A stretch of DNA of 14,574 nucleotides from a virus. Taxonomy: Duplodnaviria > Heunggongvirae > Uroviricota > Caudoviricetes. The DNA lies in the IMG/VR virus record IMGVR_UViG_2851955134_000008; one strand, 5' to 3'. Positions 1,316 through 14,574 of the stretch are shown here, in pieces; the first letter of the stretch is position 1, and each line of letters opens with the position of its first letter. A program made the position numbers and the translations under genes. The notes beneath the pieces are model-generated. The model was not told the origin of the DNA. It searched no databases and was given only the letters and a program-made list of their open reading frames with translations.

Positions 1316-1420
1316 AATCCGTTGAAGCCTGCTTTTTTATACTAAGTTGGCATTATAAAAAAGCATTGCTTATCAATTTGTTGCAACGAACAGGTCACTA
1401 TCAGTCAAAATAAAATCATT
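1316..1420. other. attL: attL (B-O-P' junction) of a lambda-type integration; 15-bp core GCTTTTTTATACTAA at 1331..1345
   Basis: The exact lambda att core is read directly. To its left is GTTGAAGCCT, the attB bacterial arm as I recall it. To its right is GTTGGCATTATAAAAAAGCATTGCTTATCAATTTGTTGCAACGAACAGGTCACTATCAGTCAAAATAAAATCATTATTTGATTTC, which I recall as the lambda P' arm leading into the int 3' end. Confidence 0.85.
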
Positions 1421-1685
1421 ATTTGATTTCAATTTTGTCCCACTCCCTGCCTCTGTCATCACGATACTGTGATGCCATGGTGTCCGACTTATGCCCGAGA
1501 AGATGTTGAGCAAACTTATCGCTTATCTGCTTCTCATAGAGTCTTGCAGACAAACTGCGCAACTCGTGAAAGGTAGGCGGATCCCCTTCGAAGGAAAGAC
1601 CTGATGCTTTTCGTGCGCGCATAAAATACCTTGATACTGTGCCGGATGAAAGCGGTTCGCGACGAGTAGATGCAATTATGGTTTC
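1419..1685 (-). pseudogene. int: Integrase remnant (3' third of lambda-type int, lacks N-terminal arm-binding and core-binding domains and part of the catalytic domain)
   Basis: Only the Int C-terminal segment up to the stop is present. It still includes the region around the catalytic tyrosine (LSARLYEKQ) and an intact internal GGATCC at 1579..1584. No xis ORF is present. Confidence 0.8.
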
Positions 1686-2057
1686 AACCATGTACCGGAT
1701 GTGTTCTGCCATGCGCTCCTGAAACTCAACATCGTCATCAAACGCACGGGTAATGGCTTTTTTGCTGGCCCCGTGGCGTTGTAAATGATCGATGCAGAGT
1801 GATTCAAACAGGTGCTGGGGCAGACCTTTTTCCATGTCGTCTGCCAGTTCTGCCTCTTTCTCTTCACGGGCGATCTGCTGGTAGTGACGCGTCCAGCTCT
1901 GAGCCTCAAGACGATCCTGAATGTAATAAGCGTTCATGGCTGAACTCCTGAAATAGCTGTGAAAATATCGCCCGCGAAATGCCGGGCTGATTAGGAAAAC
2001 AGGAAAGGAGGTTAGTGAATGCTTTTGCTTGATCTCAGTTTCAGTATTAATATCCAT
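1419..2057 (-). CDS. gam: In-frame chimeric ORF: lambda Gam (GamL start 2057, GamS start 1937; first ~124-127 codons) fused to the C-terminal ~85-88 codons of lambda integrase
   Basis: The N-terminal part ([15 protein letters not shown]...[15 protein letters not shown]...EHIRYMV) matches recalled lambda Gam. The C-terminal part ([21 protein letters not shown]...REWDKIEIK) matches the recalled lambda Int C-terminus. A good RBS (CAGGAG) precedes the GamS ATG. Confidence 0.85.
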
Positions 2058-2155
2058 TTTTTATAAGCGTCGACGGCCTCACGAAACATCTTTTCATCGC
2101 CAATAAAAGTGGCGATAGTGAATTTAGTCTGGATAGCCATAAGTGTTTGATCCAT
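2012..2155 (-). CDS. kil: Kil (47-aa host cell-division inhibitor of lambda)
   Basis: [50 protein letters not shown] matches recalled lambda Kil. AGGAG lies 8 nt upstream of the ATG. It overlaps the cIII 3' end as in lambda. Confidence 0.75.
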
Positions 2156-2288
2156 TTTTTGGGACTCCTGGCTGATTAAGTATGTCGATAAGGCGTTTCC
2201 ATCCGTCACGTAATTTACGGGTGATTCGTTCAAGTAAAGATTCGGAAGGGCAGCCAGCAACAGGCCACCCTGCAATGGCATATTGCAT
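2124..2288 (-). CDS. cIII: CIII (54-aa FtsH/HflB inhibitor, lysogeny regulator)
   Basis: I translated this ORF by hand: [54 protein letters not shown]. It matches recalled lambda CIII and is below the 60-aa cutoff of the supplied ORF track. Confidence 0.8.
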   Translation of the reverse strand: MQYAIAGWPVAGCPSESLLERITRKLRDGWKRLIDILNQPGVPKNGSNTYGYPD

Positions 2289-2360
2289 GGTGTGCTCCTT
2301 ATTTATACATAACGAAAAACGCCTCGAGTGAAGCGTTATTGGTATGCGGTAACGCCGCGC

Positions 2361-2729
2361 TCAGGCGGCTTTGATAGTCATATCATCTGAATCAAATATT
2401 CCTGATGTATCGATATCGGTAATTCTTATTCCTTCGCTACCATCCATTGGAGGCCATCCTTCCTGACCATTTCCATCATTCCAGTCGAACTCACACACAA
2501 CACCATATGCATTTAAGTCGCTTGAAATTGCTATAAGCAGAGCATGTTGCGCCAGCATGATTAATACAGCATTTAATACAGAGCCGTGTTTATTGAGTCG
2601 GTATTCAGAGTCTGACCAGAAATTATTAATCTGGTGAAGTTTTTCCTCTGTCATTACGTCATGGTCGATTTCAATTTCTATTGATGCTTTCCAGTCGTAA
2701 TCAATGATGTATTTTTTGATGTTTGACAT
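2361..2729 (-). CDS. ea10: Ea10-like early pL-operon protein (122 aa)
   Basis: 122-aa ORF in the position and orientation of lambda ea10 between cIII and the sieB/N region. The sequence fits my recollection of Ea10, but I am less certain of this one. Confidence 0.65.
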   Translation of the reverse strand: MSNIKKYIIDYDWKASIEIEIDHDVMTEEKLHQINNFWSDSEYRLNKHGSVLNAVLIMLAQHALLIAISSDLNAYGVVCEFDWNDGNGQEGWPPMDGSEGIRITDIDTSGIFDSDDMTIKAA

Positions 2730-2989
2730 CTATTCATATCCTCACAGATAAAAAATCGCCCTCACATTGGAGGGCAAAGAAGATTTCCAATAATCAGAAC
2801 AAGTCGGCTCCTGTTTAGTTACGAGCGACATTGCTCAGTGTATTCACTCGTTGGAATGAATACACAGTGCAGTGTTTATTAGTATGCCTGTCTTTTAACC
2901 ACATCAGGCTCGGTGGTTCTCGTGTACCCCTACAGCGAGAAATCGGATAAACTCTATTCACCCCTACAGAGAGCAAAAGAGAAACGCCG

Positions 2990-3571
2990 ATGAACAACTC
3001 ATGGTGGCAGGAACTAATGCATTTTTTCCTGCAAGGAATGACACTTAAACAGTTGATTCATATGCTAATCATCCTAATCATATTGATTATTGTTATGCCT
3101 GTAAGCGTAAAAGAATGGATAAACCTGCATAATCCAGAAATCCTTCCTCATTACTGGATGTATTACATCCTGTTGTTTTGCGTTAGCTATGTGCTTAACG
3201 GCGTTGTTAATTCCGCTTATCACGCTGTGACTGAAAGAATTGAGATATTCGCTGCTCAGAAGCGCAAATCTAAAGAAGAGAAATACGTGCAAGATTTGTT
3301 TGATTCGTTAACTCTTGGAGAAAGAGCGTATTTGGCATTCGCTGTAGCCGCTAATAACCAGCTAAAGACAGAAAAGGGAAGCCCTGAAGCAATCTCATTG
3401 CTCGAAAAAGGGCTTCTTATTCGGGTACCTTCTGCTACTGGATATCCTGAAATCGACCGTTTTGTTATCCCGGAACGCTATAGAAATGAGTGCTACATTA
3501 GGTTTGCTGGGAAGAAAGACAGTCTTATGGATGAACTTATCGCTCAGGATAAGCATGGCAAAAACAAGTAA
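2990..3571 (+). CDS. sieB: SieB-like superinfection exclusion protein (inner-membrane abortive-infection protein)
   Basis: 193-aa ORF with a hydrophobic N-terminal segment (LIHMLIILIILIIVMPV) and a charged C-terminal domain. It is transcribed opposite to pL, between N and ea10, where sieB lies in lambda and P22. Confidence 0.6.
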   Translation: MNNSWWQELMHFFLQGMTLKQLIHMLIILIILIIVMPVSVKEWINLHNPEILPHYWMYYILLFCVSYVLNGVVNSAYHAVTERIEIFAAQKRKSKEEKYVQDLFDSLTLGERAYLAFAVAANNQLKTEKGSPEAISLLEKGLLIRVPSATGYPEIDRFVIPERYRNECYIRFAGKKDSLMDELIAQDKHGKNK

Positions 3572-3587
3572 TTAGCAAATTAATTTA

Positions 3588-3860
3588 TCATCTCGCCGTC
3601 AGTTGTTTTGATTTCCGGTAGCCTGCCGCGTAAATGGCTACGTTTGGCAGGCAAATACTTCCACTGCATTCATCTGCCTTCTTGCAGCGAAGGCTTCCGA
3701 GTGATGCTGCTTTGTCTGCTCTGACGCAACCAGAGAGCTTTAGCGCAATTTTTCGCGCCAGTCGCTGTTCTTGCATTGCCTGCTCACGTTGAGCCTGTCT
3801 GCGTGCTCTGCGGCGATTTCTGGCGTTATCGTCAGCCAGATATGTAATGACTACTGCCAT
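3588..3860 (-). CDS. N: N-type transcription antitermination protein (P22 gene 24-like C-terminus, distinct arginine-rich motif)
   Basis: 90-aa ORF with an N-terminal arginine-rich motif (NARNRRRARRQAQREQ). Its C-terminus (LPNVAIYAAGYRKSKQLTAR) closely resembles the recalled P22 gp24 C-terminus (LPGVALYAAGHRKSKQITAR). It is the first gene downstream of pL/nutL. Confidence 0.8.
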   Translation of the reverse strand: MAVVITYLADDNARNRRRARRQAQREQAMQEQRLARKIALKLSGCVRADKAASLGSLRCKKADECSGSICLPNVAIYAAGYRKSKQLTAR

Positions 3861-3967
3861 GTTGACCTCCGATGATTGACTTTGGCGGTGACGCGCCGGG
3901 TGCTTATCTTCCGGTTGCCGTCGTGCAGCTGCACTTCACGTCACCCCAAAGCCAACTACTCTTTGGT

Positions 3968-4008
3968 TCCCGCATTTCGGCGGGACAATCCCATCAATGT
4001 TAAAGAGC
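3968..4008 (-). promoter_or_regulatory. Putative nutL: boxA-like GCTCTTTAACA (3998..4008) followed by boxB-like hairpin (3968..3985)
   Basis: On the minus strand GCTCTTTAACA matches the boxA consensus. Twelve nt downstream is a hairpin (TCCCGC-CGAAAT-GCGGGA). It lies between pL and the N start codon. Confidence 0.5.
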
Positions 4009-4055
4009 CTGCCAATCTGTTCCGTTTGGCTACCAGCGTCCTGCCGATGACTTAA

Positions 4056-4108
4056 ATTTAAGATTTCTTTAACTATTGGTCAAGAGCGTTTTTGAAGAAA
4101 ACTTAAAT
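4056..4108 (-). promoter_or_regulatory. OL/pL region: at least two 18-bp P22-type operator sites (4056..4073 ATTTAAGATTTCTTTAAC; 4091..4108 TTTGAAGAAAACTTAAAT)
   Basis: Both sites fit the NNNNAAGNNNNCTTNNNN pattern shared with the three OR sites. They sit upstream of nutL and N on the leftward transcription unit. Confidence 0.6.
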
Positions 4109-4151
4109 TTTGTTGCGAAGCTTAAGTTTTGCTTTGATTTTTAAAGGAAAG

Positions 4152-4172
4152 AAAAAAAGGGGCGAATGCCCC
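4152..4172 (-). terminator. Rho-independent terminator immediately after the repressor gene
   Basis: On the minus strand a GGGGC-ATTC-GCCCC hairpin is followed by TTTTTTTC, starting right after the cI stop codon. Confidence 0.6.
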
Positions 4173-4823
4173 TTATGGAAGGTTTGCTATTTTTGCATCG
4201 ACAACTACACCGATGATTTTGCAGTTCCCGTTGATCTCAATCATCGGATATTGTGGGTTAAGTGGTTTTAGAAACCTTCTGCCAGCATCAATAACTAACT
4301 TCTTGAAAGTTGCCTCGTTTTCTCCTTCGAGCTTTGCCACTACCAGCTTCCCATTACGAGGTTCTACTTCAGGATCGACTAGTATTATCATCCCTTCCGG
4401 GATGCTAAGACCGGCTGGAGCCGTCATCGAATCACCCTTTACGTCCAGCCAAAACGAATCTTCTGAACAATCTACGGTTGTATCGTACCAGTTATCTATT
4501 GCACGCTTATGATATGGCTCTACAGCTTCCATCCAACATCCTGCGCTTACCCAACTAATTAGAGGATACGAACCTCTTGGATCATGCCTGCTGTGATAGG
4601 CAATGTTTGAAAGACTATCTTCTCCTTTCAACAAGTAATCAGGGGAGCACTGTAAAGCCTTGGCTAAAGCCAATAGGTTTTCGCCATTGGGCTCAGTTTC
4701 AGAACGCTCCCATTGGGAAATAGCAACATTAGACACGCCAACCATCTTGCCAAGGGCAGCCTGCCTAATCTTAAGTTCTTTTCTGCGAGCGCGAATACGC
4801 TCACCCATCAGTTGTGTATTCAT
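4173..4823 (-). CDS. cI: Prophage repressor, P22 C2-type (N-terminal HTH, C-terminal LexA-like S24 autopeptidase domain)
   Basis: 216-aa ORF, near-identical over its length to my recollection of P22 C2 (MNTQLMGERIRARRK.LKIRQAALGKMVGVSNVAISQWERSETEPNGENLLAL...). The Ser/Lys dyad context (GDSM ... K) is present. Confidence 0.9.
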   Translation of the reverse strand: MNTQLMGERIRARRKELKIRQAALGKMVGVSNVAISQWERSETEPNGENLLALAKALQCSPDYLLKGEDSLSNIAYHSRHDPRGSYPLISWVSAGCWMEAVEPYHKRAIDNWYDTTVDCSEDSFWLDVKGDSMTAPAGLSIPEGMIILVDPEVEPRNGKLVVAKLEGENEATFKKLVIDAGRRFLKPLNPQYPMIEINGNCKIIGVVVDAKIANLP

Positions 4824-4889
4824 AGTTAAGACATCTTAAATAAACTTGACTTAAGATTCCTTTGATAGATAATTTAAGTGTTCTTTAAT
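4824..4889. promoter_or_regulatory. OR3-OR2-OR1 operators (4824..4841, 4849..4866, 4872..4889) with pR (-35 TTGACT 4846..4851, -10 GATAAT 4868..4873) and divergent pRM
   Basis: Three 18-bp sites fit NNNNAAGNNNNCTTNNNN, with 7- and 5-bp spacers. OR1 ATTTAAGTGTTCTTTAAT matches the recalled P22 OR1. The region lies between the divergent cI and cro starts. Confidence 0.75.
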
Positions 4890-4903
4890 TTCGGAGCGAG
4901 TCT

Positions 4904-5023
4904 ATGTACAAGAAAGATGTTATCGACCACTTCGGAACCCAGCGTGCGGTACCGAATACTGAAGAATTACGCCAAAACACTGACAGGAGCAGGAGTATGA
5001 AGTCAGAGATAACAATCAACTAA
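4904..5023 (+). pseudogene. cro: cro remnant: first 16 codons of a P22-type cro, then unrelated sequence to a stop (39 codons)
   Basis: MYKKDVIDHFGTQRAV matches the recalled P22 Cro N-terminus. The next 23 codons (PNTEELRQNTDRSRSMKSEITIN) do not, and the ORF is too short for a Cro fold. Confidence 0.7.
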
Positions 5024-5085
5024 TACTGTTTTGTTGATTTTTGCTTGTAATTGGCGTTCTGGTCTGAGTTTTGTGGAGTAAGTTG

Positions 5086-5463
5086 ATGCGTGATATTCAG
5101 ATGGTTCTTGAGCGTTGGGGAGCGTGGGCGGCTAATAATCATGAAGATGTGACCTGGTCGTCCATTGCCGCCGGTTTTAAGGGATTAATTCCTTCAAAAG
5201 TAAAATCTCGCCCACAATGTTGTGACGATGACGCGATGATCATTTGCGGGTGCATGGCCCGTCTGAAAAAGAACAACAGCGATTTGCATGATTTATTGGT
5301 GGACTATTATGTCGGCGGCATGACTTTTATGGCGCTTGCACGTAAGCATGGGCGATCTGATTGTTGGGTTGGCAGGATGCTTCAGAAAGCTGAGGGCGTA
5401 GTGGAGGGTATGCTGATGGTGTTGGATCTCCGATTGGAGATGGATGCTGATTGTTCGAAATAA
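5086..5463 (+). CDS. Q: Late-gene antiterminator Q, phage-21 / DLP12 QuuD / P22 gp23 type
   Basis: [37 protein letters not shown]... matches the recalled QuuD/gp23 family. GGAG lies 7 nt upstream of ATG 5086. It is followed by a short leader and tR'. Confidence 0.85.
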
Positions 5464-5562
5464 TTAAAGGAAAAGTTGCTGTCTGATTGTCATTAGTCTA
5501 ACATTTTAAATGTTGGAATCGCAACGTAGTTATTATCATATAACAGCTTGTTTCCTGATTTA

Positions 5563-5590
5563 GCCAGCCTCCCCAAAGGCTGGTCTTTTT
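5563..5590 (+). terminator. tR'-like rho-independent terminator of the short late leader transcript (Q-antiterminated)
   Basis: CCAGCC-TCCCCAAA-GGCTGG hairpin followed by TCTTTTTCT, about 100 nt after the Q stop. The late promoter pR' and qut site are expected in 5464..5562 but are not resolved. Confidence 0.6.
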
Positions 5591-5618
5591 CTAATAAGTA
5601 TTATTTCGGGTAGGGATT

Positions 5619-6143
5619 TTATTGTTTAACCCATAATAATTCATTGACATTGAATCCCAACTTTTGAGCGGTTCGCACATAGTCTGCTTTTACTTTATCT
5701 GGAATAGTTGGGGTCCTTGCCAGAATCCATAGGTATTCTCTGTTCGGACCACTGACAAGAGCATACTTATACTCATCATCCAGTTTGATTACATTATAGC
5801 CACCATAGAAGGGGCCAAAAAACGAAACCTTCAATGCTGCAGTTTTAGTATCTCCAGTAAAGTATGCTTTACCTTCGCTCTCGCTCCATTTATTTTTCGT
5901 TGGATCGTATCCACGGTTAAGTACACGAATCCCTCCGTCGTTCCGTTTTCCATAAGTAGCGCTGACCTGTTCCAGACCACGTTCGAACCGGTTCTCGAGG
6001 CGAGCTATTTCATACCATTTTCCGAGGTAGCGGTTGGCGTCAAAATTTGTAATCGGCTGCACACCTTTAGGTGGTGTCGGGGCCTTACATGCTATAAGAG
6101 TGAAAGAGAGTGCAATGCCAGTCAACACAGGCCATAACTTCAT
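5619..6143 (-). CDS. Blc-like bacterial lipocalin, outer-membrane lipoprotein
   Basis: 174-aa ORF with a lipoprotein signal (LIAC lipobox). It resembles recalled E. coli Blc throughout (NFDANRYLGKWYEIARLENRFERGLEQVSATY ... KVSFFGPFYGGYNVI ... YLWILARTPT). Confidence 0.85.
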   Translation of the reverse strand: MKLWPVLTGIALSFTLIACKAPTPPKGVQPITNFDANRYLGKWYEIARLENRFERGLEQVSATYGKRNDGGIRVLNRGYDPTKNKWSESEGKAYFTGDTKTAALKVSFFGPFYGGYNVIKLDDEYKYALVSGPNREYLWILARTPTIPDKVKADYVRTAQKLGFNVNELLWVKQ

Positions 6144-9876: not shown

Positions 9877-11334
9877 ATGAATACATCTCATGTAAGAGTT
9901 GTTACTCATATGTGTGGGTTCCTGGTTTGGCTCTATAGTCTTTCAATGTTGCCACCAATGGTTGTAGCATTGTTTTATAAAGAAAAAAGCCTGTTCGTTT
10001 TCTTTATAACTTTCGTTATATTTTTTTGCATTGGTGGCGGAGCGTGGTATACAACTAAGAAATCTGGCATTCAATTACGTACCCGTGATGGGTTTATTAT
10101 AATTGTAATGTTTTGGATTTTGTTTTCTGTTATTAGTGCATTCCCTTTATGGATTGACTCAGAACTTAATTTAACGTTCATTGATGCTCTGTTTGAAGGG
10201 GTTTCTGGAATAACAACAACAGGAGCAACTGTAATTGATGATGTTAGTTCATTACCTCGGGCATATTTGTACTATCGGTCACAGTTAAATTTTATAGGTG
10301 GTTTAGGAGTTATTGTTCTGGCGGTTGCTGTATTGCCATTATTGGGTATTGGTGGTACAAAGCTTTATCAGTCAGAAATGCCGGGGCCATTTAAGGATGA
10401 CAAACTCACTCCCCGCCTGGCCGATACGTCACGGACACTGTGGATAACTTATTCTTTATTAGGTATTGCTTGTATTGTCTGTTATAGACTTGCAGGAATG
10501 CCTTTGTTTGATGCTATTTGTCACGGGATTTCCACAGTTTCGCTTGGTGGTTTCTCAACTCATAGCGAGAGTATCGGATATTTTAATAACTATTTGGTTG
10601 AGCTGGTGGCTGGTTCTTTTTCCCTGCTATCGGCTTTCAACTTCACTCTTTGGTATATTGTTATTAGCAGGAAAACGATAAAACCTTTAATCAGAGATAT
10701 TGAACTTCGTTTCTTTCTGTTAATAGCCTTAGGGGTGATCATTGTTACCTCTTTCCAGGTCTGGCATATAGGTATGTATGACTTGCATGGAAGTTTTATT
10801 CATTCGTTTTTTCTTGCCAGCTCCATGCTCACTGATAATGGTTTAGCTACGCAGGATTATGCAAACTGGCCCACGCACACGATAGTGTTTTTGCTGTCGT
10901 CAAGTTTCTTTGGGGGATGTATAGGTTCAACTTGTGGTGGAATTAAGTCACTTCGATTTCTTATACTTTTCAAACAAAGCAAACACGAGATAAATCAGCT
11001 TTCTCATCCCAGAGCGTTGTTGAGTGTAAATGTAGGAGGGAAGATAGTTACAGATCGTGTAATGAGGTCTGTATGGAGTTTCTTTTTTCTTTATACTCTC
11101 TTCACGGTGTTTTTTATACTGGTGTTAAATGGTATGGGATATGATTTTCTTACATCATTTGCAACAGTGGCTGCATGTATTAATAATATGGGATTAGGTT
11201 TTGGGGCTACTGCATCGTCATTCGGAGTGCTTAATGACATTGCAAAATATTTAATGTGCATAGCTATGATTCTTGGTCGCCTTGAAATTTATCCTGTTAT
11301 TATATTGTTTTCAGGTTTTTTTTGGCGCTCCTAA
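9877..11334 (+). CDS. trkG: TrkG/TrkH-family potassium uptake transporter (prophage-borne, as trkG in the Rac prophage)
   Basis: 485-aa polytopic membrane ORF matching recalled E. coli TrkG from MNTSHVRVVTHMCGFLVWLYSL onward. The region is AT-rich. An alternative in-frame TTG lies at 9859. Confidence 0.9.
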   Translation: MNTSHVRVVTHMCGFLVWLYSLSMLPPMVVALFYKEKSLFVFFITFVIFFCIGGGAWYTTKKSGIQLRTRDGFIIIVMFWILFSVISAFPLWIDSELNLTFIDALFEGVSGITTTGATVIDDVSSLPRAYLYYRSQLNFIGGLGVIVLAVAVLPLLGIGGTKLYQSEMPGPFKDDKLTPRLADTSRTLWITYSLLGIACIVCYRLAGMPLFDAICHGISTVSLGGFSTHSESIGYFNNYLVELVAGSFSLLSAFNFTLWYIVISRKTIKPLIRDIELRFFLLIALGVIIVTSFQVWHIGMYDLHGSFIHSFFLASSMLTDNGLATQDYANWPTHTIVFLLSSSFFGGCIGSTCGGIKSLRFLILFKQSKHEINQLSHPRALLSVNVGGKIVTDRVMRSVWSFFFLYTLFTVFFILVLNGMGYDFLTSFATVAACINNMGLGFGATASSFGVLNDIAKYLMCIAMILGRLEIYPVIILFSGFFWRS

Positions 11335-11420: not shown

Positions 11421-11455
11421 CCCCAGTAGCACTGGCTGCTGGGGTGCGTTTTATT
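11421..11455 (+). terminator. Putative rho-independent terminator after trkG
   Basis: CCCCAG..CTGGGG stem (with internal AGC/GCT pairing) followed by TGCGTTTTATTC. Confidence 0.4.
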
Positions 11456-11471: not shown

Positions 11472-13304
11472 ATGAGCGAGAAATTAAAGATAGTCTATCG
11501 CCCATTACAAGAATTGTCACCGTATGCGCACAACGCCAGGACGCACAGTACTGAGCAGGTGGCACAACTGGTAGAAAGTATTAAGCAATTCGGCTGGACT
11601 AATCCGGTGCTGATTGACGAAAAGGGCGAAATTATTGCGGGTCACGGTCGTGTTATGGCGGCTGAAATGCTCAAAATGGATTCTGTTCCGGTCATTGTTC
11701 TGTCTGGCCTGACGGATGAGCAGAAAAAGGCGTACCGCCTGGCAGATAATCGCCTACCGATGAATGCTGGCTGGGATGAAGATCTGTTGCGGATGGAGCT
11801 GTCGGACCTAATCAATGCTGATTTTGATGTCTCCCTGACAGGCTTCGGCCCGACACAAATTGATGAACTGTTGACGGATGTTTTGCCCGGTACAGGAAAT
11901 AAGGAGGAGGGGAATACCAATATATCCGGCGTCACGGTGGTGTTCCGGGCCGGTGAGCAGGAGCAGACACCGCCGGAGGGATTTGAATCCTCCGGCTCCG
12001 AGACGGTGCTCGGTACAGAAGTGAAATATGACACGCCGATCACCCGGACCATCACGTCGGCAAACATTGACCGTCTGCGTTTTACTTTCGGCGTGCAGGC
12101 ACTGGTGGAAACCACCTCAAAGGGGGACAGGAATCCATCGGAAGTCCGCCTGCTGGTTCAGATACAACGTAACGGTGGCTGGGTGACGGAAAAAGACATC
12201 ACCATTAAGGGTAAAACCACTTCACAGTATCTGGCCTCGGTGGTGGTGGATAACCTGCCGCCGCGCCCGTTCAGTATCCGGATGCGCAGGATGACGCCGG
12301 ACAGCACCACAGACCAGCTGCAGAACAAAACGCTCTGGTCGTCATACACCGAAATTATCGATGTGAAACAGTGCTACCCGAACACGGCACTGTTCGGCGT
12401 GCAGGTGGACTCGGAGCAGTTCGGCAGCCAGCAGGTGAGCCGTAATTATCATCTGCGCGGGCGTATTCTGCAGGTGCCGTCGAATTATAACCCGCAGACG
12501 CGGCAATACAGCGGTATCTGGGACGGAACGTTTAAACCGGCATACAGCAACAACATGGCCTGGTGTATGTGGGATATGCTGACCCATCCGCGCTACGGCA
12601 TGGGGAAACGTCTTGGTGCAGCGGATGTAGATAAATGGGCGCTGTATGTCATCGGCCAGTACTGCGACCAGTCGGTGCCGGACGGCTTTGGCGGCACGGA
12701 GCCGCGCATCACCTGTAATGCGTACCTGACCACACAGCGCAAGGCGTGGGATGTGCTCAGTGATTTCTGCTCGGCGATGCGCTGTATGCCGGTATGGAAC
12801 GGGCAGACGCTGACGTTCGTGCAGGACCGACCATCAGATAAGGTGTGGACCTATAACCGCAGTAATGTGGTGATGCCGGATGATGGCGCGCCGTTCCGCT
12901 ACAGCTTCAGCGCCCTGAAGGACCGCCATAATGCCGTTGAGGTGAACTGGATTGACCCGAACAACGGCTGGGAGACGGCGACAGAGCTTGTTGAAGATAC
13001 GCAGGCCATTGCCCGTTACGGTCGTAACGTCACGAAGATGGATGCCTTTGGCTGTACCAGCCGGGGGCAGGCGCACCGCGCCGGGCTGTGGCTGATTAAA
13101 ACGGAACTGCTGGAAACGCAGACCGTGGACTTCAGCGTGGGTGCGGAAGGGCTTCGCCATGTACCGGGGGATGTCATTGAAATCTGCGATGATGACTATG
13201 CGGGTATCAGCATCGGCGGGCGTGTGCTGGCGGTGAACAGCCAGACCCGGACGCTGACGCTCGACCGTGAAATCACGCTGCCATCCTCCGGTAAATCCGT
13301 TTAA
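11472..13304 (+). CDS. J: In-frame chimera: ParB-like nuclease-domain protein N-terminus (~145 aa, YnaK-like) fused to an internal segment of lambda tail-tip protein J (to about J residue 530), then a stop 3 codons past the J homology
   Basis: Residues 1-145 carry a ParB/Srx-like motif ([11 protein letters not shown]). From [36 protein letters not shown] to REITLPSSG the sequence matches recalled lambda J. J's N-terminal ~65 residues and C-terminal ~600 residues, including the receptor-binding end, are absent. Confidence 0.85.
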
Positions 13305-13608
13305 CCACAGCTCCGTCCCTAAACATCCACTTACTGGAATCATCAGCGCAGCGGTTGGCTGTAATATCTGGAACCTCAACGACGCTATAACCTTCAGGGT
13401 TAAGCGTGGAGGCATCTTTGGTGATGGCGACAATAATATTATTTGCATCGTAAACAATCTTTATTGTGTCTGGCTGAAAGTTTTTCACTTCCTCATACCA
13501 GTTTTTTCCGTCTTCGGACCATAACCAGATAACATCAAAATTCTTTGTTAGCTGATATTGTTCTTTTGTTTTTGGATTTCCAGACTTAATATTTTTTAAA
13601 TGCTGCAT
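13273..13608 (-). pseudogene. tfa: Tail fibre assembly gene (Mu U / e14 TfaE-like family), 3'-truncated at the junction with J and reading antisense into J sequence
   Basis: N-terminus [14 protein letters not shown]...[30 protein letters not shown] resembles the recalled Tfa family. The ORF is 111 aa against roughly 190 aa for that family. Its last codons overlap the J-homologous sequence on the other strand. Confidence 0.6.
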
Positions 13609-13611
13609 AAA

Positions 13612-14574
13612 TTACACCTGTACGACGTTATACCATGTGCCATTGATGTATTTTTGTATTGGTCTGAATACTGCCGGATCATCGCCATCAACTGCACCGA
13701 TAATGCCAAGCCCCGTAATTGCATGACCTGATTTCTCATACATCACGCCTTTTTGCATAGTCTGAACAACACGTGTACCAAGTCGGACATCTCTCACATA
13801 ACGTGAGTCAAAATTACCATAATTGCCGGGAATAACTTGCGCACCGCAAAGCCAGTTGCCATTGTTGTCCATGTACGCCTGACCATCGGTGCCATTGGCT
13901 GTCCTTGAGTTATTAATCATGTAGATGCCAAATTGCTTATTCCCCAGTCCACCAATCATAAATTTGCGATCAGCGTGGTCCTGACGAAGTAATGCCTGCG
14001 CACCATCGGTGGATACCGCATTGCGTCCCAAAATAACATTCTGGTCACGCATATGAATCCACATGCCGGTACTACTGTTAATTGCAAAACGGTTTGCAAA
14101 TATATCCCCTGTAACATCAAGACCATGCCCCATGCTTATCCGACCAGTTCTGAGATTAAGCGTAAAGGGGCGTAGTGGCCCTATATCACCATTTTCTCCC
14201 TCATTCTCTCGTGTAGGGATGATATGCAGGCATTCTTCAGAACGACGAAAAATAGCACCAAAAGATGAATTAAATATCCTCAGTGCATTGACTGTCGATA
14301 TTTTTACTTCACTGCTGAAAAGGGCTTTAACAAGGACAGACAAAGCATCCCATTTAAGAGTCATCAGGTCTTTTGTTGTGGTGCTCTGGCGGCTTCTCCA
14401 TTTGAAATATTCATTGCCGTTGTCGCCTGTTTCAAACCACATGTATGAATCAGTGTCGCTGTCGGCATTATTTTTAAAACCAATCTTTGCCCAGTCAGTA
14501 TTTCTAATCCAGGCAAGGATTGAGTCGTTTTCAAAAGTAAGCCCACCGGACAAGGTATCGCCATTCTTTTGCAC
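13612..14574 (-). CDS. stf: Tail fibre protein, C-terminal portion (5' end lies beyond the window), directly upstream of tfa
   Basis: Open frame from the window edge to a stop at 13612, four nt before the tfa start. The glycine/asparagine-rich sequence is typical of a fibre distal domain. The labelled first Met is not the real start. Confidence 0.6.
   Translation of the reverse strand: MQKNGDTLSGGLTFENDSILAWIRNTDWAKIGFKNNADSDTDSYMWFETGDNGNEYFKWRSRQSTTTKDLMTLKWDALSVLVKALFSSEVKISTVNALRIFNSSFGAIFRRSEECLHIIPTRENEGENGDIGPLRPFTLNLRTGRISMGHGLDVTGDIFANRFAINSSTGMWIHMRDQNVILGRNAVSTDGAQALLRQDHADRKFMIGGLGNKQFGIYMINNSRTANGTDGQAYMDNNGNWLCGAQVIPGNYGNFDSRYVRDVRLGTRVVQTMQKGVMYEKSGHAITGLGIIGAVDGDDPAVFRPIQKYINGTWYNVVQV

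Follow-up and report, generated by a model that had tools for sequence, protein, structure and literature searches.

A chimeric ParB-like::J open reading frame as a probable decay scar of a lambdoid prophage at att-lambda in Escherichia coli

The Rac prophage of E. coli K-12 provides one of the closest known counterparts of the locus described here. In K-12 Rac, trkG is followed by ynaK (b1365), and a deletion with its start inside this ParB-like gene has taken out packaging and head genes and fused ynaK codon ~85 to ydaY; by comparison with phage vB_EcoS-666R9 the deletion spans ~11.6 kb, and it leaves a tape-measure fragment behind. This deletion, different from the one at the present locus, has shortened K-12 YnaK to 87 aa. 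Other decay joints in cryptic lambdoid prophages of E. coli, such as the Qin nohA–J joint of strain 17MR471 and the H'–J56 remnants at att-lambda, likewise combine large deletions of the late region with microhomologies of 2–4 nt and chimeric ORFs that contain fragments of J. They differ from the present locus in their left partners, and enter J either at codon 56 or elsewhere (nt ~179, codon ~101, codon ~328). A protein with the same two parents is encoded in strain TUM10008 (WP_241380650.1, 1339 aa), where a ParB-like gene located directly after trkG is joined in frame to J codon 56. In contrast to the locus described here, its ParB-like part extends to codon 258, its J is complete to the natural stop and is followed by intact downstream tail-fibre genes, and its chromosomal location is next to sitD.

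The window analysed here is the whole 14,574-nt stretch of IMG/VR record IMGVR_UViG_2851955134_000008. A six-frame ORF list with translations revealed a 610-codon ORF (610 aa) which starts with ATG, ends with TAA and consists of three parts: ParB-like codons 1–145, J-derived codons 146–607, and three antisense-derived codons followed by the stop (Table 1). The window differs from K-12 Rac in that the breakpoint in the ParB-like gene lies at codon 146, the partner is J codon 56, and the element occupies att-lambda. The K-12 Rac deletion, independent and starting in the same gene, was counted in favour of reading the present ORF as a product of decay.

Table 1. Features of the chimeric ORF and of the prophage remnant around it (window coordinates)
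Feature	Coordinates	Strand	Basis and remarks
int'::gam chimeric ORF	1419-2057	-	Gam domain fused to integrase C-terminus; further deletion joint
S24-type repressor (cI)	4173-4823	-	Directly adjoins Q; further deletion joint
Q	5071-5463		Upstream of lysis genes
trkG, potassium transporter (cargo)	9877..11334	+	Pfam TrkH, 8.9e-144; FORC_031 RefSeq annotation
Terminator-like hairpin	11421..11454	+	10-bp stem with 7 G-C pairs, then T-rich tail; consensus scan, pattern match only
Chimeric ORF	11472-13304	+	ORF list and translation; TAA at 13302-13304
ParB-like fragment (codons 1-145)	11472..11906	+	N-terminal ParB/Srx-like domain; parent is a 263-aa Rac-type protein (full-length YnaK)
Left joint, shared GAG codon (3-nt microhomology)	11907..11909	+	Three-way alignment of window and both parents; ParB parent matches through 11909, J from 11907
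J fragment	11907..13293	+	Corresponds to nt 166-1552 (residues 56-517) of lambda J; residues 1-55 and 518-1132 absent
Right joint, shared TA dinucleotide	13292..13293		J matches end at 13293, tail-fibre assembly matches start at 13292
Codons K, S, V (remainder) and TAA	13294..13304	+	Antisense strand of tail-fibre assembly fragment; translation and alignment; first base of these codons is J-derived 13293
Tail-fibre assembly gene, U'-type, truncated	13292..13608	-	~105 N-terminal codons, C-terminus missing; RefSeq pseudogene
Tail-fibre gene, Sv'-type C-terminal variable part	13612..14574	-	Pfam Gp34_trimer, 4.5e-11; N-terminus missing; runs off the window

The N-terminal part is, judged by its sequence, a genuine but truncated ParB-like protein. 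Residues 1–145 match PHROG 620, 'ParB-like partition protein' (1.1e-71; profile positions 3–146 of 217 covered), and residues 23–90 match Pfam ParB_N (PF02195) with 27.4 bits, barely above the cut-off of 26.3. Spo0J/ParB structures give weak matches. The translation contains the GxxR motif of the ParB N-terminal domain at residues 54–64, which we take to be the ParB arginine-patch motif. At the DNA level, the ORF agrees with K-12 ynaK at every one of its first 254 nt (100% identity). Codons 1–145 show 98.2% identity to the 792-nt 'ParB' gene of vB_EcoS-666R9, and over the first 446 nt of the ORF the identity to this gene and to its relatives is 98%. Compared with the full-length phage subfamily (263 aa), only residues 1–145 or 146 are kept and the C-terminal 117 residues are lost.

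In the J-derived part, ORF nt 436–1822 align to lambda J by blastn at 96.3% DNA identity, with 51 mismatches and no gap, and the fragment is 96–98% identical at the DNA level to J of many lambda-like phages. Fusion residues 146–610 align by blastp to lambda J 56–520 at 97.8%, and residues 146–607 share ~98% amino acid identity with residues 56–517 of lambda gpJ (PDB 8iyk and related), the structure 8iyk being also the one matched by this part in a structure search. Both central domains of gpJ are present: FNIII-A_GpJ (PF24801) at ORF residues 176–297 (4.7e-42) and Phage-tail_3 (PF13550) at residues 420–587 (3.3e-43). The native N-terminus is absent, the ParB-like gene standing upstream of codon 56, and so are the C-terminal Ig/FN3 repeats and the receptor-binding domain, so that the product lacks the C-terminal 615 residues of J. 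With foreign sequence at both ends and both of these J regions missing, the chimera as read from its sequence would not be able to work as a tail tip.

Both joints were placed by alignment. At the left joint the shared GAG serves both as ParB-like codon 146 and as J codon 56, and the frame is kept because both parents are in phase 0. At the right joint, J codon 517/518 meets an inverted tail-fibre assembly gene midway along its length. An earlier note, based on the letters of the window and their translations, had proposed an in-frame ParB-like::J chimera with a breakpoint near 11907, after 145 residues, and a J segment ending near 13293 with a stop three codons later. Alignment of the window with its parents identified these as proposed and located the breakpoints accordingly, and the loss of the receptor-binding end of J was also borne out. 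The number of J codons lost at the left joint had been estimated at ~65; J homology in fact begins at codon 56, and the loss amounts to 55.

Phage vB_EcoS-666R9, an essentially intact Rac-like phage, indicates what has been lost. Its trkG is followed by the 263-aa ParB-like gene, by a gene of glucosyltransferase type, a small ORF and the small and large terminase genes, and then by portal, coat and head-tail genes, tail tube, a ydaY-like chaperone, tape measure, and M, L, K and I. This order agrees with the earlier suggestion that the ParB-like domain is of the kind found upstream of terminase genes, and with the suggested removal of the terminase, head and tail shaft genes, all of which lie between the two parents in this phage. 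Since vB_EcoS-666R9 holds the complete order from trkG to I, the whole morphogenetic block (packaging, head and tail) is judged, by this sequence comparison, to be missing from the window element. The span from ParB codon 146 to J codon 56, ~18 kb, is an estimate, as the vB_EcoS-666R9 record stops in gene I, before J.

Our preferred reading, to which we assign a probability of roughly 0.85, is that the ORF is a chimeric pseudogene that spans two deletion joints of an extensively decayed lambdoid prophage at att-lambda. The anatomy of the ORF, its parents, both joints and their occurrence across genomes were shown directly. At the left joint, codon 146 of the ParB-like gene, the gene just after trkG, is connected to codon 56 of a lambda-type J. 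Given that the two joints share only 2–3 nt, both would have been made by microhomology-mediated illegitimate recombination rather than by homologous or site-specific recombination. Their combined effect would have been the loss of the ~18 kb with the genes for packaging, head and tail, followed by loss of the C-terminal half of J, of lom and of most of the tail-fibre region. The reading frame would have been kept by chance, with a probability of 1 in 3, and any transcription would represent read-through of the Q-dependent late operon. The product would presumably be without a function of its own.

The surroundings of the ORF describe the element further. In the closest complete genomes (FORC_031, E2386 and others), it lies at att-lambda, between ybhC and ybhB/bioA. 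The Rac prophage as defined in K-12 occupies instead the ttcA site beside ompN and uspF, and in the window element only the trkG–ynaK' segment is Rac-like, the backbone (a lambda-type int remnant at att-lambda) being not Rac. The gene order is ybhC, int'::gam ORF, kil, DUF2528, sieB, N, S24-type repressor, Q, cargo, lysis genes, trkG, chimera and U'/Sv'; between Q and trkG there are lipocalin, YbgA-like and AraC-like cargo genes, then essD, rrrD and Rz. The succession of trkG and a ParB-like gene is common to the window, K-12 Rac and intact Rac-like phages such as vB_EcoS-666R9. Downstream, the U'-type fragment is 87–96% identical to the U' genes of P7, P1, D108 and P88 and to the equivalent in strain 81009, and its sequence points to an origin in the inverted half of an invertible tail-fibre segment.

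Further deletion joints (int'::gam, and cI beside Q) lie within the window, in line with a history of decay. The element is a multiply deleted lambdoid prophage, and the chimeric ORF accounts for two of its several deletion joints. Window positions 1686–5731 were not found contiguously in any of 5,426 complete E. coli genomes. Relatives of the FORC_031 type show an IS1-associated replacement in this region, and Q is kept in the window, unlike in FORC_031.

The distribution of the joints argues against an assembly artefact and, together with protein searches, against a natural ParB–J protein family. Of 5,426 complete E. coli genomes, 27 contain the full length of a 216-nt query across the left joint as one uninterrupted match at 100% identity, and 27 likewise contain a 211-nt query across the right joint in one piece; the strains listed for the two queries coincide, with identities of 99.5–100%. 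The left joint is also present in one IMG/VR contig and three metagenome contigs, and its identical form in these and in the 27 complete genomes, each sequenced independently, is difficult to reconcile with an artefact. The carriers are near-identical in sequence and probably represent one lineage. By their strain names, they are mostly human diarrhoeal isolates, several of them O6:H16, and they include the enterotoxigenic reference strains TW10598 and B2C.

RefSeq treats the two halves in these genomes as separate partial pseudogenes (ynaK' and J') and not as one ORF. It annotates the 1339-aa ParB::J ORF of TUM10008 as an ordinary gpJ, as might be expected if a natural family existed. Both halves have full-length, separate parents with 97–98% DNA identity, however, and among the 150 best matches of a HMMER search that covered 1.84 billion representative proteins, a single one spans both halves: P0008, a contig-truncated copy of the same fusion covering query residues 1–414. 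The other matches among the best 150 are J homologues, aligned from query residue ~110–145 onward to their own residues ~24–60. A natural family of such proteins, which according to the earlier note would have spoken against a chimera, was rejected on these grounds, and we regard either a natural family or an assembly artefact as extremely improbable.

A rival reading is that the chimera, with its ParB-like N-terminal domain fused to the hub-forming part of J, has been domesticated as an expressed protein that benefits the host, for instance by interfering with tail assembly of incoming lambdoid phages or with DNA handling. The ORF keeps the native ynaK start with a short Shine-Dalgarno-like AAGG upstream, and it lies downstream of the retained Q antiterminator, the lysis cassette and trkG, so that Q-modified late transcription of this operon could in principle read through into it. 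Most carriers have an intact ORF: it is open in five of the six relatives inspected (identical in L027; with one substitution, R599C, in L001, L002, L026 and L028). This observation, with the native start, was counted against the decay reading, in that the ORF may be expressed. As the carriers are near-identical and apparently of one lineage, however, an intact ORF says little on selection, and the copy of the sixth relative (L013) is frameshifted at about codon 397.

Other evidence also weighs against domestication. The ParB-like part has lost its C-terminal 117 residues, the J part residues 1–55 and everything beyond 517, and the C-terminus of the product is antisense-derived. Three changes in the J part (N178S, V218F and L276M) are missing from all three J alleles compared (2H10, lambda and Z142-3), a putative terminator hairpin separates trkG from the ORF, and no family of such proteins appears among the best 150 matches of 1.84 billion. 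Several related junctions are in frame, which would fit a selected product; two of the three other DNA-level J56 junctions inspected (TUM10008 and Z142-3) are in frame with the upstream gene and could hint at selection for in-frame joints. Against such selection, the L031 junction is out of frame and the L009 junction has an antisense partner. Taken together, we consider a domesticated role very unlikely.

What is unusual about the left joint is the position at which it enters J. Besides the window joint, the same J breakpoint, to the nucleotide, occurs in at least six other junction types. Position nt 166–168 of lambda-type J (GA followed by GGGGAATACC) bounds seven joints that retain the right side, whose partners are ParB codon 146, ParB codon 258, a tail-chaperone filler, antisense ynfO, a large terminase and two different tape-measure genes. 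In each of these right-retaining joints the J-derived DNA begins at GGGGAATACC and the partner ends with GA, the overlap being GA, GAG or GAGG. Two of these loci, TUM10008 and Z142-3, surfaced in the search with the left joint as ParB and J pieces a few hundred bases apart. In TUM10008 and one metagenome contig, ParB codon 258 is joined to J56. In Z142-3, at the true Rac site, an intact ParB gene and 47 codons of the next gene are followed by a 50-nt filler and by J from codon 56; the filler is copied from a small gene by the tape measure (L005 33297-33346), and the joint microhomologies are CATC and TGA. Strain 2020CK-00188 shares the att-lambda backbone of the window; there, antisense ynfO is joined at the same J nucleotide with a GA overlap. 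The protein search added a large terminase (~394 aa) joined to J56, a lambda-type tape measure H (...FAVLE) joined to EGNTNIAGV at att-lambda (the H'–J56 joint), and a different tape-measure gene joined to J56 out of frame.

In addition, two joints that retain the left side end at the same site and keep only J codons 1–56. In one of them J(1–168) adjoins P4-like satellite DNA at a point ~140 nt away from the satellite cos site; the overlap is GAG, and there are 10/13 flanking matches. In the other J(1–167) is joined to antisense sitA. In the left- and right-retaining joints alike, the sequence common to J and its partner is GA or at most GAGG. Other positions in J are used as well: nt ~179 with nohA, codon ~101 with two partners and codon ~328 with two partners. 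From these sequences, J appears to be a frequent right-hand deletion end in general, among which codon 56 stands out.

These findings bear on whether the left joint arose in one step, as the earlier note had proposed. According to this view, a single deletion of ~18 kb within one Rac-like prophage joined codon 146 of the ParB-like gene to codon 56 of its own intact J. The net structure fits, being exactly a deletion from ParB codon 146 to J codon 56 when compared with an intact Rac-like phage with lambda-like H, M, L, K and I, and the 3-nt GAG microhomology suffices for illegitimate recombination. In line with this notion, the J fragment of the window differs from the intact J allele of phage 2H10 by only 2 nt over the first 465 nt, and independent one-step events ending at codon 56 would be expected if this site is truly fragile. 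Doubt on a single step comes from the same J breakpoint in the other junction types and from TUM10008 as a possible intermediate.

In this regard, the ParB258–J56 form of TUM10008 and the metagenome contig has the same J end together with the ParB variants of the window, Gly126 and Lys144, and an in-frame deletion of 336 bp between GGAG repeats would turn it into the window form. Alleles similar to these two variants are common in intact ParB-like copies. At this chromosomal site, other strains carry tape-measure H'–J56 and ynfO'–J56 joints. Between the ParB parent and the H'–J56 joint, 7 nt (GGAGGAG) are shared, as compared with 3 nt for intact J, and the prophage backbone, as described above, is not that of Rac. 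It is possible that the J56 boundary pre-existed and that the ParB side was joined later, through a ParB258–J56 form or by recombination with an H'–J56 joint; TUM10008 may represent such an intermediate or a parallel event. We hold a one-step origin to be plausible, at somewhat less than even odds.

A common origin of all J56 joints was considered and rejected: their first 465 nt differ by 8–27 nt between junction types without grouping against intact J alleles, and J fragments taken from different joints diverge from one another to the extent that random J alleles do. This comparison is not decisive in itself, as gene conversion from intact J copies could overwrite the fragments. The H'–J56 joint as a widespread ancestor was likewise rejected, the joint being found in none of 5,426 complete genomes.

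The recurrence of the breakpoint might alternatively reflect a property of the site. J nt 166–168 would then be truly fragile, or the target of an enzyme, with large deletions starting there and extending to either side, and the window chimera would be one of many independent products; a site-specific break, or the excision of a mobile element, would be followed by microhomology end-joining. Deletions promoted by the IS-excision enhancer (IEE) offer an analogy: they run outward from an insertion sequence, with one fixed and one variable end and 2–4 nt of microhomology, and range in size from a few nt to >40 kb; IEE is reported in >30% of E. coli assemblies (PMC9943667). By analogy, an IEE-promoted deletion anchored at an IS would give the pattern seen at J56, that is, a fixed end, a variable end and short microhomology. 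The J56 joints differ from IEE deletions in that no insertion sequence was seen at J codon 56 in any locus examined.

Several searches for a structural cause at J56 gave negative results. No J::IS allele was found in three exact-pattern scans of viral contigs and a sampled 1.9-kb BLAST, which together make a weak test, and the 56-aa J(1–56) entries in the protein collection, first considered as IS-truncated genes, were rejected as contig ends. Local alignment of the left partners with the sequence upstream of J56 gave scores for extended short homology within ~1–2 SD of shuffled controls; additional homology is clear for the lambda H partner alone (CGGTnCTGGA plus GAGG). DNA folding at J56 is not significant (z = -1.3), and no repeat ends at this point. 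J has no Chi site that could protect its end, the only one of the window being at 10602, in trkG. By eye, the site bears no convincing likeness to a Pin/Gin-type crossover site (gix consensus), and its partners are not sites of this type either. The literature on ynaK yielded nothing relevant to a ParB–J joint. We entertain a fragile or targeted site only tentatively, and with some doubt.

Our results place the chimera as one more scar of the process by which lambdoid prophages lose their virion genes and keep cargo such as trkG, lysis genes and fragments of tail-fibre genes. They also illustrate that such joints are annotated inconsistently, as two pseudogenes in the carriers of the window form and as an 'intact' 1339-aa gpJ in TUM10008. 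The chimera itself is ordinary, and the recurrent breakpoint at J codon 56 is the sole feature of possible specialist interest. If it is a true fragile site or enzyme target, it would constitute a natural, sequence-defined hot spot of illegitimate recombination in E. coli prophages that is open to experiment.

The J side of the chimera's left joint lies at a nucleotide that recurs as a boundary at other loci (see table). The boundary, between GA and GGGGAATACC at J codon 56, is found in at least seven junctions in which J is retained from that codon on, and the same nucleotide also bounds two junctions that retain only J codons 1-56. The partners joined at this point are not related to one another, and what they have in common with J is a microhomology of just 2-4 nt. 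An IS, a Chi site, a hairpin and a repeat were looked for at the boundary and none was found. Within the window, the Chi sequence GCTGGTGG occurs as a single copy, inside trkG. In E. coli TW10598 (L144), another carrier of the chimera, trkG is interrupted by IS1, the chimeric ORF downstream being unaffected.

Contigs that end exactly at J nt 168, the last nucleotide of codon 56, occur in many E. coli draft assemblies (L134-L140 and about 190 more). These ends suggest that the sequence branches at exactly this nucleotide in the genomes concerned. An exact 56-aa J(1-56) 'protein', recorded from 155 contigs, is on record because the draft contigs stop there.

Table. Locations of the junctions and associated features
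Feature	Location	Strand	Description
Boundary at J codon 56	window 11907-11909; L007, L008, L009, L016, L030, L031, L032-34, L062, L129		
ParB::J fusion, E. coli TUM10008	L008 7673-11692		ParB(1-258)::J(56-end), 1339 aa
Satellite/J joint	L129 11329-12995		cos-proximal region of a P4-like satellite joined to J(1-168)
ynaK, K-12 MG1655 Rac	L141 4378-4981		87 aa
Chi sequence	window 10602-10609		within trkG
Second in-frame chimeric ORF	window 1419-2057	minus	Gam and integrase pieces, 212 aa
Repressor-Q region	window 4173-5463	minus (repressor); plus (Q)	S24/LexA-type repressor gene, Q antiterminator gene

The TUM10008 fusion (WP_241380650.1) carries the ordinary RefSeq label 'phage attachment tail tip protein J'. 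At the satellite joint, IS5 comes next, and in 843 E. coli genomes the P4-like sequence involved directly follows the delta gene. On the ParB-like side, K-12 ynaK is itself a deletion product: its homology to the intact 263-aa gene ends at about codon 85, and past this point homology restarts about 11.6 kb further on, in the ydaY-like gene that an intact Rac-like phage carries.

Other positions in J also serve as joints. Codon ~101 is joined to two different left partners, lambda gpA and a tape-measure-like gene (L035-37, L038), and ACC is common to J and both of them. Codon ~328 likewise has two left partners, lambda H and another gene (proteins P0096 and P0101). In the H fusion the protein sequences are similar across the joint (H ...MWDAVLD, J ...AWDVLSD), a likeness which suggests that H and J would share a short DNA homology there.

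Further marks of deletion are present in the window. The second chimeric ORF fuses a Gam host-nuclease-inhibitor domain (residues 41-128) to a C-terminal integrase fragment (residues 124-201), and therefore implies a deletion that took out xis, exo, bet and most of int. None of the complete E. coli genomes (5,426 in all) has window 1686-5731 as one contiguous stretch; in the closest chimera carriers, of the FORC_031 type, it is replaced by a different 2.5-kb stretch with IS1, and these carriers, unlike the window, are without Q. In the window, the repressor gene lies only about 250 nt from Q, and cro, cII, O, P and the nin region are absent. Q, and via Q the lysis genes, may now be driven directly by a repressor-controlled promoter.
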